Positions 452 to 8,079 of a stretch of DNA of 64,000 bases are shown piece by piece. The notes under the pieces were generated by a model that saw only the letters and a list, made by a program, of their open reading frames with translations, was not told where the DNA came from and made no database searches. How positions within the stretch are numbered: position 1 is the first letter of the stretch; the number at the start of each line of letters is the position of its first letter. The stretch lies in the IMG/VR virus record IMGVR_UViG_3300022752_000013; one strand, given 5' to 3'. Source of the stretch: a virus (lineage: Duplodnaviria > Caudoviricetes). The translations under genes were made by a program, and so were the position numbers.

Positions 452-1012
452 GTGGCAATTGTACAAGTATCTCGAATCACAAATCGTAAAGGTCTAGCAG
501 AAAATGTGCCGCAACTGGCCGGCGCAGAACTTGGCTGGGCCATCGATGAACGTAGACTGTTTATCGGCAACGGCACCCTGCAAGAAGGCGCCCCTGTCAT
601 TGGCAACACAGAAGTGCTCACTGAGTACTCAGACGTGTTCACTGGTCGCACACAGTTTTCGTTTGGCAACTATGTTGTAAATGCAGGAACCACTGCAACC
701 TTGGCCAACAATGCCACCACAGAAACGGTGTTTACCATTGACGCCAGCACAATTCCAGCGTTTGAAGTAAAATACATGATACGCCGGGGCGTTTTTACTA
801 GAACCGGCACATACATTGTTGTAGGCAGTACAGATGGTTCTGGTAGTCTGCCAACCCCAGTGGATGCTAATCCTTTACAAAACGGATCTACCGGCGTCAC
901 CTTCACAGTGACTGAAAGCGCCAGCACTATTACATTTGCTTACTCCAGCACCAACACAGGTGTAACTGGAACTCTTTATTATTCTATCAGTTACTTTTTA
1001 CCTACAGTTTGA
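452..1012 (+). CDS. Virion structural protein with Mtd-N-like N-terminus
   Basis: N-terminus MAIVQVSRITNRKG...PQLAGAELGWAIDERRLFIGNG, followed by a Thr/Ser/Gly-rich beta region. CTAAATA late motif at about 421. Confidence 0.65.
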   Translation: MAIVQVSRITNRKGLAENVPQLAGAELGWAIDERRLFIGNGTLQEGAPVIGNTEVLTEYSDVFTGRTQFSFGNYVVNAGTTATLANNATTETVFTIDASTIPAFEVKYMIRRGVFTRTGTYIVVGSTDGSGSLPTPVDANPLQNGSTGVTFTVTESASTITFAYSSTNTGVTGTLYYSISYFLPTV

Positions 1013-1437
1013 TGTGGCCGCTTACATTTGAACAGCGCCTACATGCGTGGGGCGCTCTTCGCGAAACAGTACAACACGCACCGGTTGAACAAGTCCTTAC
1101 CGAAGTCAATACCTGGTGGTTTCAAGCACCTTGGCGAGCATATCATTTGCACTGGGATGATCGGCCAAACTGGCCAGATCCTTGGGAACTTTTAAGCGAT
1201 AATATCTATTGTGATCTTGCTCGCGGGCTGGGAATCCTGTATACTATAACTCTGCTGGATCGTGCTGATCTGCAGGATTCAATATTGGCGGAATCAGATC
1301 AGGGCAATTTAGTCCTGGCACAGCAAGGGAAATATATATTGAATTGGGACTCGCAACAAGTGTTAAATATCAATCCAGGGCAGATCAAGGCCCAGCACAG
1401 CATAACGCAAGAACAAATACAACAACAAATCGGATAA
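1009..1437 (+). CDS. Conserved phage hypothetical protein
   Basis: 142-aa ORF overlapping the upstream stop codon. Trp-rich (WWFQAPW, WPDPWELL). Confidence 0.6.
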   Translation: MMWPLTFEQRLHAWGALRETVQHAPVEQVLTEVNTWWFQAPWRAYHLHWDDRPNWPDPWELLSDNIYCDLARGLGILYTITLLDRADLQDSILAESDQGNLVLAQQGKYILNWDSQQVLNINPGQIKAQHSITQEQIQQQIG

Positions 1438-1439
1438 CA

Positions 1440-2915
1440 ATGAAGCAAATTATAGTACAAAAACGCAGTGGTAGCCGCGAGCCACTTGCATTGGAAAAAT
1501 GGCAAGCACAAATAGCCAAGGTTTGTGCAGGCATAGCGGATGTCAGTCAAAGCATGATTGAGATCAAAGCCCAGTTGCATTTTTATGATGGCATCACAAC
1601 CAAAGAAATCGACGGCATCACACTCAGAGCCATAGTGGACCTGATTGACGTAGAATCAAACCCTGATGTGGGCCACACCAACTATCAGTTTGTGGCAGGC
1701 AAGCAACGACTATCAATGTTGCGTAAAGATGTATACGGTTCATACGATCCTCCTCACCTGTATGAGATTGTGAAGCGGAATGTGGCCACTGGCCTGTACA
1801 CTCCTGAACTCCTGGAATGGTACTCAGAGGAAGACTGGAATCGCATGGAAGACATGATTGATCATGTGAAGGACGAACAGTATTCATATGCGGCAGTGGA
1901 ACAACTGATTGAAAAGTATCTGGTCAAGAATCGTTCAACAAAAGAAATTTACGAAACACCACAAGTGCGTTACATGATTGCGGCTGCCACGGTGTTCCAC
2001 ACGGAAGAACCCAACACAGCCCGTATGCGTTACATAAAGGAATACTACAATGCCGCAAGTGATGGATTATTTACCCTTGCTACTCCCGTCCTTGCTGGTC
2101 TCGGTACCCCTACTAAGCAATTCAGTTCGTGCGTACTCATTAGGAGTGATGATGACCTGGATAGTATTTTTGCTAGTGGTGAAATGATGGCCAAGTATGC
2201 CAGCAAACGTGCTGGCATTGGCTTAGAAATTGGACGACTACGTCCACTAGGGTCGCCCATACGTGGCGGCGAAATCATGCACACCGGCATGATACCATTT
2301 TTAAAGAAGTGGTTCGGCGACTTACGCTCATGCTCACAAGGAGGTATTCGCAATGCAAGTGCTACTGTATTTTATCCCATTTGGCATCATCAGTTTGATG
2401 ATCTTATTGTTCTTAAGAACAATCAAGGAACCGAAGAAACCCGAGTCCGGCACATGGATTATGGGGTTGTGCTTAGTGCTTTCTTCTGGAGACGATTTAA
2501 AAACAAAGAAAACATAACATTCTTTGATCCCAACCAGGTACCTGATCTGTATGAAGCGTTCTATGCCAACACTGAACGTTTTGAAAAACTTTATGTCGAG
2601 TATGAAAAGCGTCGAGACCTGCGTACCAAGACCATGAGCGCGGAAGAAGTGTTCAAGTCAGGCATACTCAAAGAGCGCACTGACACCGGTCGCATCTATC
2701 TAGTGTTCATTGACAACGTTCAGAATCAAGGTCCGTTTGATACTGAGTACCATACCATTTATCAGAGTAACTTATGCCTGGAGATTTTGCTCCCAACAAA
2801 ATCTTTCAAGCGAATGAATCCTGAACGCAAGTTGATTAGAGTTAAAAAGTCCAATGTTAATGAGTTTATGAAAACTAAACCCACAGACATAGTTAAAATT
2901 AGGAAAATAAAATAG
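1440..2915 (+). CDS. nrdA: Ribonucleotide reductase class Ia alpha subunit, N-terminal fragment (NrdA-a)
   Basis: ATP-cone (IIVQKRSGSREPL), TLATPVLAGLGTPTKQFSSCVL, GGIRNASAT and active-site QSNLCLEILLPT. It then ends in a basic non-RNR tail and TAG TAG. The ATG at 1440 is preferred over the track start at 1344. Confidence 0.95.
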   Translation: MKQIIVQKRSGSREPLALEKWQAQIAKVCAGIADVSQSMIEIKAQLHFYDGITTKEIDGITLRAIVDLIDVESNPDVGHTNYQFVAGKQRLSMLRKDVYGSYDPPHLYEIVKRNVATGLYTPELLEWYSEEDWNRMEDMIDHVKDEQYSYAAVEQLIEKYLVKNRSTKEIYETPQVRYMIAAATVFHTEEPNTARMRYIKEYYNAASDGLFTLATPVLAGLGTPTKQFSSCVLIRSDDDLDSIFASGEMMAKYASKRAGIGLEIGRLRPLGSPIRGGEIMHTGMIPFLKKWFGDLRSCSQGGIRNASATVFYPIWHHQFDDLIVLKNNQGTEETRVRHMDYGVVLSAFFWRRFKNKENITFFDPNQVPDLYEAFYANTERFEKLYVEYEKRRDLRTKTMSAEEVFKSGILKERTDTGRIYLVFIDNVQNQGPFDTEYHTIYQSNLCLEILLPTKSFKRMNPERKLIRVKKSNVNEFMKTKPTDIVKIRKIK

Positions 2916-2944
2916 TAGGTAATAGTATTACAAGGTAGAACATT

Positions 2945-3316
2945 ATGAACAAAAATATAAGAGATTACATCAACTTAATAGAAACCGCCCAGCAAGGTGT
3001 GGCCGAAGGCTTGAACGAATTTGCACCAGATGGATTTAACGGTGGCAATGACGGCGAAGAGTTTAGTCCGGAAATCGCCAAGATGGCACAAGAAGATGGC
3101 TTTACAAAAGGTGCGAGTCTTGCTGACGGTGCAACATTAGAACGAGCAATTACTATTAACCACTGGCACGACCAACACGGTGGTATGTATAAACAATACT
3201 TTGCTAAAGGCTTCAAACAAGGTCGTATGAATAAAATCCGTCACGACAATAAACAATATAATCTCAACTTGAAGTTGATGAAAGACGGTAGCATTAGACG
3301 TGGAGAACAGAAATGA
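2945..3316 (+). CDS. Hypothetical protein inserted between the nrdA fragments; N-terminus resembles head-packaged proteins
   Basis: 123-aa ORF. MNKNIRDYINLIE...VAEGLNE contains repeated (I/L/V)-x-E motifs. Confidence 0.65.
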   Translation: MNKNIRDYINLIETAQQGVAEGLNEFAPDGFNGGNDGEEFSPEIAKMAQEDGFTKGASLADGATLERAITINHWHDQHGGMYKQYFAKGFKQGRMNKIRHDNKQYNLNLKLMKDGSIRRGEQK

Positions 3317-3516
3317 ACGAACAAGTTAAAATACTTTGGGCTAAGGCAGCCGAATCAAACTTTGGCGATAGTTGGGAAGAACAAACTGCCTTTATGTCTA
3401 AGTTCGCCGAGTTGATTGTGAGAGAATGTGCCGATATTGCTAATGCTGGTATTGATCCTGCTGAATCACATTTGATCGGCGATGATATTTTAAAACATTT
3501 CGGAGTTGAAGAATGA
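3313..3516 (+). CDS. Small conserved phage hypothetical protein (KFAELIVRECA family)
   Basis: 67-aa ORF with ATGA overlaps on both sides. Confidence 0.7.
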   Translation: MNEQVKILWAKAAESNFGDSWEEQTAFMSKFAELIVRECADIANAGIDPAESHLIGDDILKHFGVEE

Positions 3517-4532
3517 ACAAATTATATGAAGAAATAGAATGTCTACCGGAAGAACTGGATGATGAATACGAATACTACGAGATTGACGAAGCAGAGGGTA
3601 GAATCGCCCTGTGTACGCTGGGAAGTATTAACTGGGGTGCATTCAGGAATCCTGAAGACATGCGCCGTGCTTGTAGAATTCTGCAGAGATCCTTGTGTAA
3701 TATTCTTGACTACCAAGACTTCCTGTCAATCCAATCGCAGTTATCAAATGACGAAATCCAGCCGCTTGGTATCGGTCTTACTAACTTGGCTTACTGGCAT
3801 GCCAAGCGCGGACTCCAATATGGTAACAAGGACGCTTTGGCCGAAGTCAAGTCGTGGATGGAACATCAGGCTTTCTACCTTACCGAAGCCACAGTTGAAC
3901 TTGCTAAAGAGCGGGGCCGTTGCAAAGATTCGGACCGCACCTGGTACGGTCGTGGTATCTTTCCCTGGGAACGACGGGCCAAAGGAGTCAATGAACTCAC
4001 GGACTTCTCTCCTGAACTGAACTGGGAAAGCCTACGTGCTGACATGCGAGCATATGGTGTGCGCAATGCCACACTGATGGCTATTGCTCCTGTTGAAAGT
4101 TCTAGCGTGGTAATCAACTCAACCAACGGCATTGAAATGCCAATGAGTTTAATATCAGTTAAGGAATCAAAAGCAGGAAGCCTTACGCAGGTTGTGCCTG
4201 AGTACCACAAGTTGAAAAACAAATATCAAATGATGTGGGCACAAAAGGACTGTGATGGTTATTTGAAAACAGCGGCTGTGTTAGCGGCCTATGTTGATCA
4301 ATCAATCTCAACCAACACATTCTACAACCCAGCACACTTTGCAGATCGTAAAGTTCCCACAACATTGATTGCTAAAAATCTAATGCAGGCACACCATTGG
4401 GGGATTAAGACCTTCTATTATAGCCTTGTGAATAAGCAAGGATCAAAATCTACAGATGAAACCGCTCCTAATACGCCACTTGAACAGATCGACTTTGATG
4501 ACGAAGATTCCTGCGAAAGTTGTAAACTTTGA
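3513..4532 (+). CDS. nrdA: Ribonucleotide reductase class Ia alpha subunit, C-terminal fragment (NrdA-b)
   Basis: Acidic leader, then GRIALCTLGSINWG, RNATLMAIAPVESSS, DQSISTN, KTFYY and the C-terminal redox pair CESCKL. Confidence 0.95.
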   Translation: MNKLYEEIECLPEELDDEYEYYEIDEAEGRIALCTLGSINWGAFRNPEDMRRACRILQRSLCNILDYQDFLSIQSQLSNDEIQPLGIGLTNLAYWHAKRGLQYGNKDALAEVKSWMEHQAFYLTEATVELAKERGRCKDSDRTWYGRGIFPWERRAKGVNELTDFSPELNWESLRADMRAYGVRNATLMAIAPVESSSVVINSTNGIEMPMSLISVKESKAGSLTQVVPEYHKLKNKYQMMWAQKDCDGYLKTAAVLAAYVDQSISTNTFYNPAHFADRKVPTTLIAKNLMQAHHWGIKTFYYSLVNKQGSKSTDETAPNTPLEQIDFDDEDSCESCKL

Positions 4533-4577
4533 TTAGTAAATAATAGTATTATTATTGTCTATTAGATAAATAATAGT

Positions 4578-5324
4578 ATGAATTACAAAAAACACTACGA
4601 TATGTTAATTGAAAGAAGCCGCACTAGAACTCTTACAGGATATGTTGAAAAGCATCATATTATTCCTAAGTGCCTGGGCGGTTCTGACGATAAAGATAAC
4701 ATTGCAGTATTAACACCAGAAGAACATTTTTTAGCACATCAACTATTAGTTAAGATATATCCTAATAGTCCTCCTTTAATAAACGCCGCGGTTATAATGA
4801 CAACTCATCATACTGAATCTAGAGCAAATAATAAATTATTTGGTTGGTTGAGACGCCGAGCATCCGAATACAGAAAAGAGTGGTTGCTAGAGAATGGACA
4901 TCCTAAGGGAATGTTAGGAAAGCATCACAAACTTGAAAACATTAACAAGATTACATCAGGTATAAAACAGAAAGCAGTTGAAAAGAGAATAGAAGTATAC
5001 ACATACAATCTAGATGGGTCTTTTTATAAAAAATATGATTCCTTAATAGAATGTGCTCAGGACTTAAAAACAAATGCATCAAATGTAAAGTATACAGCAG
5101 AAGGAAACTTTGGTCATTGTAAACAAAAACAAATAAGATATGAGTTTTTTGAAAATATAGAGCCATATGTTAAACCATCTCCTCTTAAAGGTAAAAAGAA
5201 AACTGAAGAACACAAATTAAATCAAAGCAAAGCAATGAAAGGTCGTACTCGCAGTGATGAGTGGAAAGCGGCACATAGTAATGCAATGAAGAAATACCAC
5301 GCAGAGAAAACGGAAACAGTATGA
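4578..5324 (+). mobile_element. Free-standing HNH homing endonuclease with NUMOD-type DNA-binding repeats
   Basis: EKHHIIPKCLGGSDDKDNIAVLTPEEHFLAH, HPKGMLGKHH, KGKKKTEEHKLNQSKAMKG. AT-rich relative to its neighbours. Confidence 0.9.
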
Positions 5325-5518
5325 ACAGTGTAGAAAAGATCTGGGCTCGGGCCACCGGGCATCTAATGGGTGAGAGTGATCATGACCGTCCAGATGTGCC
5401 TATATTAACCTTGAGAGAAGCCCGAATAGCCTTGTTTTTCAAAACATTTTGGGTTATAATACATGTTATAACCTGCGGTTTCATTATAGCCAACACAATT
5501 AGACACTGGAACAATTAA
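5321..5518 (+). CDS. Small membrane protein
   Basis: 65 aa with a C-terminal hydrophobic helix. ATGA overlap. Confidence 0.65.
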   Translation: MNSVEKIWARATGHLMGESDHDRPDVPILTLREARIALFFKTFWVIIHVITCGFIIANTIRHWNN

Positions 5519-6139
5519 ATGTTAGAAACCTGTTGTGATATATTAGTCGATGCGTACAAACGCAATTGGATAACCAGTAGAGATGGCAACATCTCTATTC
5601 GTCATCACGACCGTGATCACTTCTATATCACACCGTCGGGTGTGCGTAAGCAGACAATGCAACCGGATCAATTCAAGAAGATCGGTATTCACGGACTGTT
5701 GTGGCAAGAAGAATATTATACTGATATCAGTGCTAATCTAAAACCCAGTGGAGAGATTCCGTTGCACTTTGGCCTACAACGAGCAATGGGGCAACACAAG
5801 GATGATGTGCGGGTAGTAGTGCATGTGCATCCGACCTATTGCATCGCGGCCATGCATGCTGGTATTGATTTGAGCACTATTAGCGATAGTTTTCCAGAAC
5901 TCAATCGTTACACACGAGTAGCACCCAATGTGGGAGATGTGGCACCTATCAGTCAAGAACTTGCTGATGCGTGTCATCGTAATCTGGGATTAGACCCAGC
6001 AGGCAATATCAAATTTGATATTGTGGGTATCAAGGGGCATGGAGTAGTGGCCATTGATGTCACACCATGGCGTGCCTATGAGCACATTGAAAGATTAGAA
6101 CACATTTGCAAGATAGTACTTGCATCAGGAAAATATTAA
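5519..6139 (+). CDS. Class II aldolase/adducin family protein
   Basis: SRDGNIS, ITPSG, KPSGEIPLH, HVHPTY and GHGVVA metal-binding motifs. Confidence 0.9.
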   Translation: MLETCCDILVDAYKRNWITSRDGNISIRHHDRDHFYITPSGVRKQTMQPDQFKKIGIHGLLWQEEYYTDISANLKPSGEIPLHFGLQRAMGQHKDDVRVVVHVHPTYCIAAMHAGIDLSTISDSFPELNRYTRVAPNVGDVAPISQELADACHRNLGLDPAGNIKFDIVGIKGHGVVAIDVTPWRAYEHIERLEHICKIVLASGKY

Positions 6140-6140
6140 A

Positions 6141-7243
6141 ATGAGTCGAGCACAATACAATTTAAAAACAAAAACAGATTATCTCAATCGCAAGATGTTT
6201 CTTGACCCAGCAGGTCCAGTGACAGTTCAACGATTTGAAGAAGTCAAGTACAACAAATTGGTCAAGTACGAGCAAGAAGCACGTGGCTTCTTTTGGGTAC
6301 CAGAAGAAATTTCACTGACCAAAGACGCACAAGATTTTAAAGATGCCTCAGATACTGTCAAGCATATCTTTACATCAAACTTGTTACGTCAAACTGCACT
6401 GGACAGTTTGCAAGGACGTGGTCCTAGCCAAATCTTTACACCTGTTGTTTCAATTCCCGAACTTGAAGCCCTGGTCTACAACTGGACATTCTTTGAAACC
6501 AATATCCACTCACGTAGTTACAGTCACATCATTCGCAACATCTACAACGTGCCCAAGGATGTGTTCAACACAATCCACGACACACAAGAAATTATTGATA
6601 TGGCTAGCAGTGTGGGCAATCATTACGATGCATTGCATGTGATCAACTGTCGTAAGGAAGCAGGCGAAATAATTACAGAGAATGAACACATCCGAGCAAT
6701 CTGGTTGGCACTCAATGCCAGTTACGCACTAGAAGCATTCCGTTTCATGGTATCATTTGCCACAAGCCTGGCCATGGTAGAGAATCGTATCTTTATTGGC
6801 AATGGCAATATTATTCAATTGATCCTGCAAGATGAAGTGCTACACAAAGAGTGGACTGGTTGGTTGATCAATCAAGTGGTCAAAGAAGATGCTCGCTTTG
6901 CAGAGATTAAGGCCGAATGCGAAGGCGAAGTATATCAAATGTACCTGGATGTGATCCGTGAAGAAAAAGCCTGGGCTGACTACTTGTTCAACAAAGGTCC
7001 TGTAATTGGTCTCAATGCAAACATTCTCAAAGACTTTGTGGACTTCACTGCATTCAATGCACTCAAAGAAATCGGAATCAAGTATACTGAAGAACATCCA
7101 CGCTCCACCCCCATACCTTGGTTTACAAGCACGTGGACACCAGTAAGAAACAAACTGCACTGCAAGAGAACGAATCAACTAACTATGTTATCGGAGTTAT
7201 GAGTGACAGCATTGACTACGACGAATTACCAGAACTATCTTAA
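6141..7243 (+). CDS. nrdB: Ribonucleotide reductase class Ia beta subunit (apparent 1-nt frameshift near 7125)
   Basis: FFWVPEEISL, ETNIHSRSY, EAFRF and DEVLH iron ligands. The canonical tail KHVDTSKKQTALQENESTNYVIG...ELS* continues in the -1 frame from 7124 to TAA at 7241-7243. Confidence 0.9.
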
Positions 7244-7251
7244 GGAAAAAT

Positions 7252-7482
7252 ATGAAAGCAATTGTATGGTCAAAGAATCACTGCCCTTACTGCGATCAAG
7301 CCAAGAACTTGCTCAAATTAAAAGGCATTGAATATGAAGAACGCAACATCAATGATGGTTGGGACAAAGAGGATTTGTTGGCGGCTGTGCCAGGTGCAAG
7401 AACAGTGCCACAGATCTTTCTGGATGAGCAACTGATTGGTGGCTTCACTGAATTGCGTAAACATTTTAGCACTGAGGATTAA
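7252..7482 (+). CDS. Glutaredoxin
   Basis: CPYC, RTVPQIF, IGGF. Confidence 0.95.
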   Translation: MKAIVWSKNHCPYCDQAKNLLKLKGIEYEERNINDGWDKEDLLAAVPGARTVPQIFLDEQLIGGFTELRKHFSTED

Positions 7483-8079
7483 ATGCCAGAATATACATCA
7501 GATTGGTTTTCCAACACAATTGTAAATTTTGAACACATCAAGGACAATTACAACAACTCATTTGATCGTATCCTGGAAATAGGTTGCCACGAAGGTCGAT
7601 CAACCTGTTGGATGTTACAGAATCTGCTGAGTGATACAGGAACTATCACGTGTGTAGATCCATTTGCCAACCATCATATCAATCCCTTTACTGGCCAAAA
7701 GCCCACTGAGGATCGCACCTGGGAAAATAGATTTAGAGCCAATACTGCCGAAGCCAAACAGCCCGAGCAAACCCTAGACGTTCATGTGGCCTTGAGTTTT
7801 CCTACCTTGGCCAAATTTATTGTAGAGCAACGTGAGTTTGATTTTGTGTACATCGACGGTAATCACTGCTGTGATGCTGTGATGGCAGATGCTGTGATGG
7901 CCTGGAGCCTGCTCAAGCCCGGTGGCTTCATGCTGTTTGATGATTACCTGTTTGAAGACGAACCAGACATACTGGATCGGGGCAAGATTGCCATAGATGC
8001 ATTCTGCACTAGTTTTACTAGACAACTTGATTTTTATTTGATCAACTATCAGTTGGCTGTGCGTAAGAAAAAAATTTAA
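7483..8079 (+). CDS. Class I SAM-dependent methyltransferase
   Basis: ILEIGCHEGRST, FDFVYIDGNH, LLKPGGFMLFDDY. Confidence 0.85.
   Translation: MPEYTSDWFSNTIVNFEHIKDNYNNSFDRILEIGCHEGRSTCWMLQNLLSDTGTITCVDPFANHHINPFTGQKPTEDRTWENRFRANTAEAKQPEQTLDVHVALSFPTLAKFIVEQREFDFVYIDGNHCCDAVMADAVMAWSLLKPGGFMLFDDYLFEDEPDILDRGKIAIDAFCTSFTRQLDFYLINYQLAVRKKKI

Follow-up and report, generated by a model that had tools for sequence, protein, structure and literature searches.

A two-gene ribonucleotide reductase large subunit with Aeh1-like charged extensions in an uncultured lake jumbo phage

Organization of the split nrdA locus

The 64,000-nucleotide stretch of IMG/VR record IMGVR_UViG_3300022752_000013 (Caudoviricetes), called the window here, encodes the large subunit of a ribonucleotide reductase (RNR) in two genes that are designated nrdA-a and nrdA-b. 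The coordinates of the open reading frames (ORFs) were combined with Pfam, PHROG, and Rfam scans of the window, and all of the features lie on the plus strand (Table 1). The complete nrdA-a ORF spans 1440-2915 and encodes 491 residues, and the complete nrdA-b ORF spans 3513-4532 and encodes 339 residues. The initial annotation described a split nrdA in which the upstream fragment ends in a 33-residue basic tail and the downstream fragment begins with a 26-residue acidic leader; the ORFs, the lengths, and the charge counts are as it claimed. The tail contains 11 Lys/Arg versus 3 Asp/Glu and has a pI of 10.8, and the leader contains 12 Asp/Glu versus 1 Lys and has a pI of 4.1. The two small ORFs in the gap between the fragments, orf123 and orf67, have no Pfam or PHROG match and no nuclease domain.

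Table 1. Features of the split nrdA locus and of the downstream genes, with window coordinates
Feature	Coordinates	Strand	Evidence and remarks
nrdA-a core	1440..2813	+	Weak ATP-cone PF03477 (24.6 bits, cutoff 25.8), all-alpha PF00317, PF02867 positions 1-222
nrdA-a catalytic residues	1440..2813	+	C225-equivalent in SSCVLI; N, C, and E of NLCLE; aligned to E. coli R1 400-450
NrdA-a tail, 33 residues, basic, with TAG stop	2814..2915	+	Without counterpart in intact relatives; tail conserved by 13 distinct variants
Spacer	2916..2944	+	Contains GTAATAGTATTAC and the ribosome-binding site of orf123
orf123, cargo, function unassigned by Pfam/PHROG	2945..3316	+	88% identical copy after the GIY-YIG gene in the L163 gap
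orf67, small cargo	3313..3516	+	ATGA overlaps with orf123 and with nrdA-b
NrdA-b leader, 26 residues, acidic	3513..3590	+	GGAG 8-11 nt upstream of ATG
nrdA-b core	3591..4532	+	PF02867 positions 222-522; C462-equivalent, FYY tyrosines, C-terminal CxxC; aligned to E. coli R1 451-528
Free-standing MobE-family HNH homing endonuclease	4578..5324	+	phrog_655 (4.7e-52); weak HNH and NUMOD1 Pfam matches below cutoff
nrdB	6141..7243	+	1-nt deletion near 7127; last ~30 residues in another frame
Glutaredoxin	7252..7482	+	PF00462 on the identical gene in L244

The position of the break was defined on the Pfam profile and on the E. coli R1 structures. The RNR barrel (PF02867) is cut at the single profile position 222, and no residues of the fold are missing. 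C439 corresponds to the Cys of NLCLE in NrdA-a and C462 to Cys34 of NrdA-b, and this mapping bears out the earlier claim that the break separates the equivalents of these two cysteines. Loop 451-457 of E. coli R1 receives both the first residues of the tail and the last residues of the leader. Intact relatives read ...LPTKPFKR-LDD-AEGRIALC... at this site, and the split allele carries the tail, the gap, and the leader in place of the three LDD codons.

The arrangement recurs in other data sets. Logan contigs from the lake metagenome runs of other studies (X3 and X6) tile positions 2507-3703 over both junctions with no differences, and a third study (X8) has a diverged split allele together with an intact allele. 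Three ENA assemblies (L244-L246) encode an identical NrdA-b in the same gene order. The exact NrdA-a protein is on record on 3 contigs, NrdA-b on 5, the orf123 product on 12, and the orf67 product on 13. The longest contig with exact proteins is 330 kb, and the source is therefore a jumbo phage. The split is genuine and is neither chance nor a misassembly, a concern that the initial annotation had raised, because the same junctions are found in other assemblies and in the contigs of other lake studies.

Homology of the extensions and selection on them

The extensions were compared with those of two other phage lineages. An alignment shows that nrdA of phage Aeh1 (nrdA-A, mobE, nrdA-B; L242) is broken in the same loop as nrdA of the window, and nrdA of the Tequatrovirus hy01 phage PEC04 (L247) is likewise split, by an HNH gene. 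The Smith-Waterman score of the Aeh1 tail against the tails of the window family is 59, versus 27.2 ± 4.6 for composition-preserving shuffles (0/2000; z 6.8). For the PEC04 tail, z is 7.7 with the family and 6.4 with Aeh1, and the motif LI[KR][VI]KKS.V..F is common to the tails of all three lineages. Each of the three lineages has D[DE]EY in the leader exactly 13 residues ahead of LCTL, and an ungapped fixed-register test gives p values of 5e-5 for the window versus PEC04 and 0.004 for the window versus Aeh1. The junction of a further locus of the window family, L019, is Aeh1-like and has a tail of intermediate sequence, LPTVAMG...FIKVKK. The pI values of the Aeh1 tail and leader are 9.9 and 4.1 as computed here, and the published values are 10.4 and 3.8, with the same charge polarity (PMC3045599). 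Crona et al. found no database match for the Aeh1 tails (PMC3045599). These sequence comparisons indicate that the extensions of the window, of Aeh1, and of the HY01-type coliphages share one origin.

The initial annotation called the split independent. The shared loop, the homologous tails (z 6.8-7.7), and the common register of D[DE]EY in the leader leave that part of its proposal unsupported. Convergence on the same design, with charge complementarity that evolved separately from that of Aeh1, would be in keeping with a phage that is not T4-like, an NrdA core that is ~39% identical to that of Aeh1, a gap that lacks a MobE gene, and a hidden Markov model (HMM) of the family tails that reaches Aeh1 at E = 0.12 only. 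We consider this origin very unlikely given that the break is in the same loop, that the tail motif exceeds composition-preserving shuffles, that the leader keeps its distance to LCTL, and that L019 supplies an intermediate tail.

The tails were also examined as degenerate duplicates of the adjoining core. Local alignments are not significant (p 0.17 and 0.5). Junction-anchored global alignments give post-hoc p values of 0.0006-0.015 for the leader and 0.0014-0.16 for the tail, and in Aeh1 no such pattern is visible to the eye. Where tblastn extended the tail far into intact NrdAs, the extension was due to chance.

Two relatives of the window carry inteins in nrdA. In L049 (1-2953), a true split intein occupies NLC|C, and the tail-type split site lies 12 residues farther downstream. 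Its N-extein ends ...SNLC and is followed by the N-intein (CVTGDT...), a free-standing 311-residue HNH endonuclease, a 34-residue C-intein ending ...ILVHN, and then CEILLPT. In L019 (1-3669), nrdA is in three pieces, with the tail-type split (45 nt from the tail stop to the leader ATG) and an apparently atypical split intein at LRSC|SQGG that consists of an N-part of ~19 residues after ...LRSC, a 369-residue ORF, and a C-part of ~135 residues ending ...LTHN|SQGG. With these inteins in relatives, and with an intein origin raised as possible for Aeh1 by Crona et al. (PMC3045599), the tail and leader could be imagined as the remnant of a split intein, or as an active one that yields a single polypeptide by trans-splicing. 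Their sequences make this extremely unlikely. The tail starts with Met, Leu, or Ile rather than Cys, Ser, or Ala; the leader ends in DE followed by Ala rather than in HN followed by Cys, Ser, or Thr; a Hint fold needs far more than 33 plus 26 residues, and no Pfam intein domain is present. The tails have no significant similarity to the intein halves of L049.

Selection on the extensions was measured on codon alignments of 12 loci, with differences summed over pairs and with the 120 codons on either side serving as the core comparison. The synonymous difference is 0.71 in the tail, 0.76 in the leader, and 0.84-0.87 in the adjoining core, all of which are near saturation. The non-synonymous difference is 0.154 in the tail and 0.050 in the leader compared to 0.151 and 0.163 in the adjoining core. 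The tail is constrained like the catalytic barrel, and the leader is ~3-fold more constrained. The charge is kept in every variant, with 10-11 Lys/Arg in the tail and 11-13 Asp/Glu in the leader. This purifying selection shows that both extensions are translated and selected as protein, which speaks against a role at the RNA level, and it is consistent with a need for the tails in assembly and activity, as shown for Aeh1. The split RNR with functional tails described in the initial annotation therefore stands as a two-gene large subunit with constrained extensions; the independence that it also assigned to the split does not, because both extensions have homologues in Aeh1.

Removal of the interruption from the RNA as a group I intron, or its bypass by the ribosome, is a further alternative. 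Phage RNR genes often contain group I introns (PMC3653736). A spliced mRNA, which the initial annotation named as an outcome that would contradict it, was sought; there is no Rfam match at E <= 1 in window positions 1000-8000 and no RNA contig that joins the two sides among metatranscriptome contigs that are patchy. The minimal gap in the family is 7 nt from stop to ATG, and the two sides are in different frames. The contents of the gap are unrelated between loci, and both of its ends are selected as protein. We give this alternative next to no credence.

Relatives, gap contents, and the downstream operon

A near-identity DNA search of GenBank phages gave no match, and the leader of the window family was found in no cultured phage. 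The nearest named NrdAs, from Xanthomonas, Ralstonia, and Stenotrophomonas phages, are unsplit and 51-63% identical. IMG/VR contains hundreds of close NrdA relatives that are mostly unsplit, and the closest intact one (L004) shares 97% and 95% identity with the two cores. The same breakpoint was sought in related phages, as suggested in the initial annotation, and a homologous tail and/or leader is present on 19 IMG/VR contigs.

In L040 and L165, the leader ATG lies 7 nt beyond the tail stop. This spacing is 597 nt in the window and 801-1478 nt in the others. A gene for an endonuclease of ~250 residues, of which there are three types, is found in 9/11 gaps examined. Domain scans of one representative per type identified two as GIY-YIG enzymes (PF01541, phrog_314, phrog_5123) and gave only the shared C-terminal domain for the third. 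The class A gap has a conserved 5' end, which is the spacer in the window and which runs on into a GIY-YIG gene in relatives. TAGTAGGTAATAGTAT directly follows the tail stop both in the window and in the loci that have the L163-type GIY-YIG gene. The L163 gap contains, in order, a GIY-YIG gene, orf123, and orf67, and relatives of orf67 sit directly upstream of the leader in L163, L169, L090, and L012. The shared sequence after the stop and the gene order in L163 therefore lead us to read the window as a derivative that lost its endonuclease, and its gap looks like the product of such a secondary loss. Judged by these sequences, what is new in this locus and its relatives is a GIY-YIG gene in place of MobE in the gap and, in the window, a gap that has no endonuclease and keeps the two cargo ORFs. 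The MobE-family HNH gene downstream of nrdA-b and the recombination between co-circulating split and intact alleles, both described below, are new as well.

Several other elements were noted in and around the gaps. One cassette class carries TATAAATA, which matches the T4 late-promoter consensus. In another class, a hairpin follows the tail stop (L087:4008-4075; also L166, L168, L090, L017, and L089) with a folding energy of -15.5 kcal/mol (z -5.3). Its loop contains ATAAATAA, and its 3' arm covers the GGAGG of the endonuclease gene, which recalls the control of mobE by RNA structure mentioned for Aeh1 (PMC3045599). A recurring element at window positions 2920-2930, 4541-4551, and 4571-4581 has 7 matches with <=1 mismatch versus 0.87 expected (7 was reached in 0/100 shuffles), and it could mark a promoter or the edge of a cassette. 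In lake metagenome contigs, the 3' end of orf67 (window 3398-3519; FAELIVREC..., ...HFGVEE) occurs at a depth of hundreds to thousands. It has many different flanks and a middle of variable length, and it belongs to a very abundant family of small ORFs that often lie directly upstream of the leader.

The distribution of split alleles was analyzed on a tree of 116 distinct NrdA cores, nine rows of which are split. The split rows are scattered; the label has to change 8 times, well-supported branches force 4 or more of these changes, and the clustering is no greater than that of shuffled labels. Sliding-window comparisons place unsplit alleles closest to the core of the window (85-97% nucleotide identity), and one half of the window's tail resembles other split loci than the other half does. 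The scattered tree and this patchwork of identity show that split and intact alleles co-circulate and recombine.

The window continues downstream of nrdA-b with an HNH gene, nrdB, and a glutaredoxin gene. The N-terminal part of the HNH protein is 51% identical to the in-gene endonuclease of PEC04 (E 3e-32) and 45% identical to Aeh1 MobE (E 4e-21). MobE lies between nrdA and nrdB in T-even phages (PMC3045599), and the HNH gene of the window is in the same position. The content of the interval from nrdA-b to nrdB is variable among relatives (window 5321-6139); the HNH gene, a 65-residue ORF (phrog_1679), and a class II aldolase-like gene (PF00596) come and go there. The glutaredoxin is likely the reductant of the RNR.

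The nrdB gene of the window reads TTTAC-AAGC where relatives have TTTACCAAGC. The resulting frameshift displaces the Y356-equivalent in TNYVIG and the acidic R1-binding end. The possibility that relatives share the nrdB frame of the window was ruled out by direct three-frame reading. The near-identical assemblies L244 and L245 encode an intact NrdB of 367 residues, the frameshifted product is found on one contig only, and the deletion probably reflects an assembly error or a variant private to this genome. This defect gives a reason to suspect decay of the RNR operon, or an artefact of assembly, in one genome: the exact 353-residue NrdB product occurs on that single contig. Against this, the sibling assemblies that have the identical NrdA-b keep the whole operon intact, with the 367-residue NrdB and the glutaredoxin; both nrdA fragments are complete and contain all of the catalytic residues; the junctions recur in the contigs of other studies; and the family is under purifying selection. 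Decay or artefact is thus a very improbable account of the split.

Proposed assembly and comparison with known systems

The class Ia RNR of Aeh1 has been described as 'genes-in-pieces' (Friedrich et al. 2007, as cited in PMC3045599). The window is very probably another member of this type, with a derivative cassette rather than a complete one. A homing-endonuclease cassette would have inserted into the nrdA loop located between the strands bearing the C439 and C462 equivalents, and the ends of the cassette would encode the basic C-terminal tail of the upstream fragment and the acidic N-terminal leader of the downstream fragment. The endonuclease gene would later have been lost in the window lineage, leaving the tail, the two small cargo ORFs, and the leader. 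NrdA-b would be translated from its own Shine-Dalgarno sequence with coupling to orf67, with neither RNA nor protein splicing. The signs of separate translation in silico are a start codon and Shine-Dalgarno sequence of its own, the ATGA coupling, the lack of an intron or intein, and the lack of an RNA joint in the contigs. By homology with Aeh1, the fragments would join non-covalently to form a composite active site and would then assemble into (aa/ab)2 with NrdB2, and the tails would be needed for productive quaternary assembly and activity. Deletion of the tails in Aeh1 lowers activity ~2000-fold (Crona et al. 2010/2011, PMC3045599). The tail-less Aeh1 fragments still form the aa/ab heterodimer, and (aa/ab)2 dimerization, holoenzyme formation, and activity are lost (PMC3045599).

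These Aeh1 experiments bear on the idea that the tails pair directly as an electrostatic beta-zipper that is the main glue holding NrdA-a to NrdA-b and could be used as a portable heterodimerization tag. The opposite charge of the tail and leader in every variant is in keeping with such a zipper, and direct charge-charge contacts were held possible by Crona et al. (PMC3045599). AlphaFold predicts a strand-helix-strand tail and a leader of strands, with a local pLDDT of 56-71 that is higher than that of the neighboring core; only the local secondary structure is usable from this run, and it gave no contact map. In Aeh1, the defect caused by tail removal lies in dimerizing the heterodimers and in holoenzyme formation, and not in the pairing of the fragments. 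We therefore regard the zipper as unlikely, and a portable tag made from the tail pair is speculative because the Aeh1 heterodimer forms without tails.

Some results weigh against membership of the window in the Aeh1 type and against the assembly proposed from it. Among 4282 six-frame segments, the Aeh1 tail is the top-ranked match of the HMM of the family tails, but only at the E value given above. A 45-position tail profile had 0 hits in 1.84 billion representative proteins, a search that is uninformative, probably because the profile is short and the cluster representatives are unsplit. The AlphaFold model of an in-frame read-through fusion has a mean pLDDT of 45 and a pTM of 0.34, with no contacts. 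The phage is uncultured, and its two-gene RNR is described here from sequence. The metatranscriptome contigs, in which no RNA joins both sides, are patchy. The frameshift in the window's own nrdB, if real, would disable the enzyme in this one genome.

We lean towards a broader reading in which the invariant part of an old mobile cassette is the tail-leader pair rather than the endonuclease, with the pair acting as a built-in antidote to gene fragmentation. The pair would have moved between distantly related phages (Aeh1, T4-like coliphages, and lake jumbo phages) and been linked with no fewer than three or four unrelated endonucleases, namely HNH MobE, two GIY-YIG types, and the third type. 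It would outlast the endonuclease because the split host gene depends on it, and split and intact alleles would keep recombining. The tail-bearing nrdA split of the Aeh1 type is already known, and the sequences relate the window to it. No new mechanism is established; the added value lies in the endonuclease-free state, the GIY-YIG relatives, and the evidence on selection and populations. The split RNR of Aeh1 was until now a near-singleton, an essential enzyme reassembled via peptide extensions from a selfish element. The locus and its relatives add dozens of natural tail variants in a different phage background, with other endonucleases or none. These variants are a comparative data set for which tail residues matter and give clear evolutionary evidence of strong constraint on the tails. 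The extensions outlive the endonuclease, and one phage family holds both fixes for a broken nrdA, tail-mediated assembly and split-intein ligation.

The closest known system is Aeh1, which a 2013 survey lists as the known endonuclease-split nrdA that is functional without an intron (PMC3653736). A 2022 preprint refers to "Aeh1 and several others" with MobE inside nrdA and conserved extensions, cited there as unpublished (10.1101/2022.08.31.505936). The window and Aeh1 are alike in the break in the same loop, in the basic C-terminal tail upstream and the acidic N-terminal leader downstream, and in the homologous sequence and register of these extensions. They differ in what separates the fragments, which is the HNH enzyme MobE in Aeh1, two small ORFs and no nuclease in the window, and a GIY-YIG gene or nothing in the relatives of the window. 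The MobE-family gene of the window lies downstream of nrdA-b, whereas mobE of Aeh1 is inside the gap. Aeh1 is a T4-like member of the Straboviridae, and the window comes from an uncultured lake jumbo phage of ~330 kb. The Tequatrovirus hy01 coliphages (such as PEC04, HY01, and UFV-AREG1) are split at the same site and have a tail (QQTRLIKIKKSDVAKF...) and a leader (...EDDEYTT...) homologous to those of the window, but they are cultured T4 relatives that keep an HNH endonuclease between the fragments.

Two further systems share parts of this design. In the MobA cassette that splits the large subunit of T4 topoisomerase II (gp39/gp60), the endonuclease can be replaced by a GIY-YIG enzyme or lost, and the extensions are always retained (10.1101/2022.08.31.505936). 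The insertion of a homing endonuclease adds C- and N-terminal extensions there, the same pattern as in nrdA here; the host gene is different, the extensions are unrelated, and its translational bypass element has no counterpart in the window. Fractured genes with split inteins, represented by L049, resemble the window in that nrdA is cut at the active site, and a free-standing endonuclease lies between their pieces. Their pieces are religated by trans-splicing (CVTGDT... / ...VHN|C), whereas the extensions of the window have no intein features.

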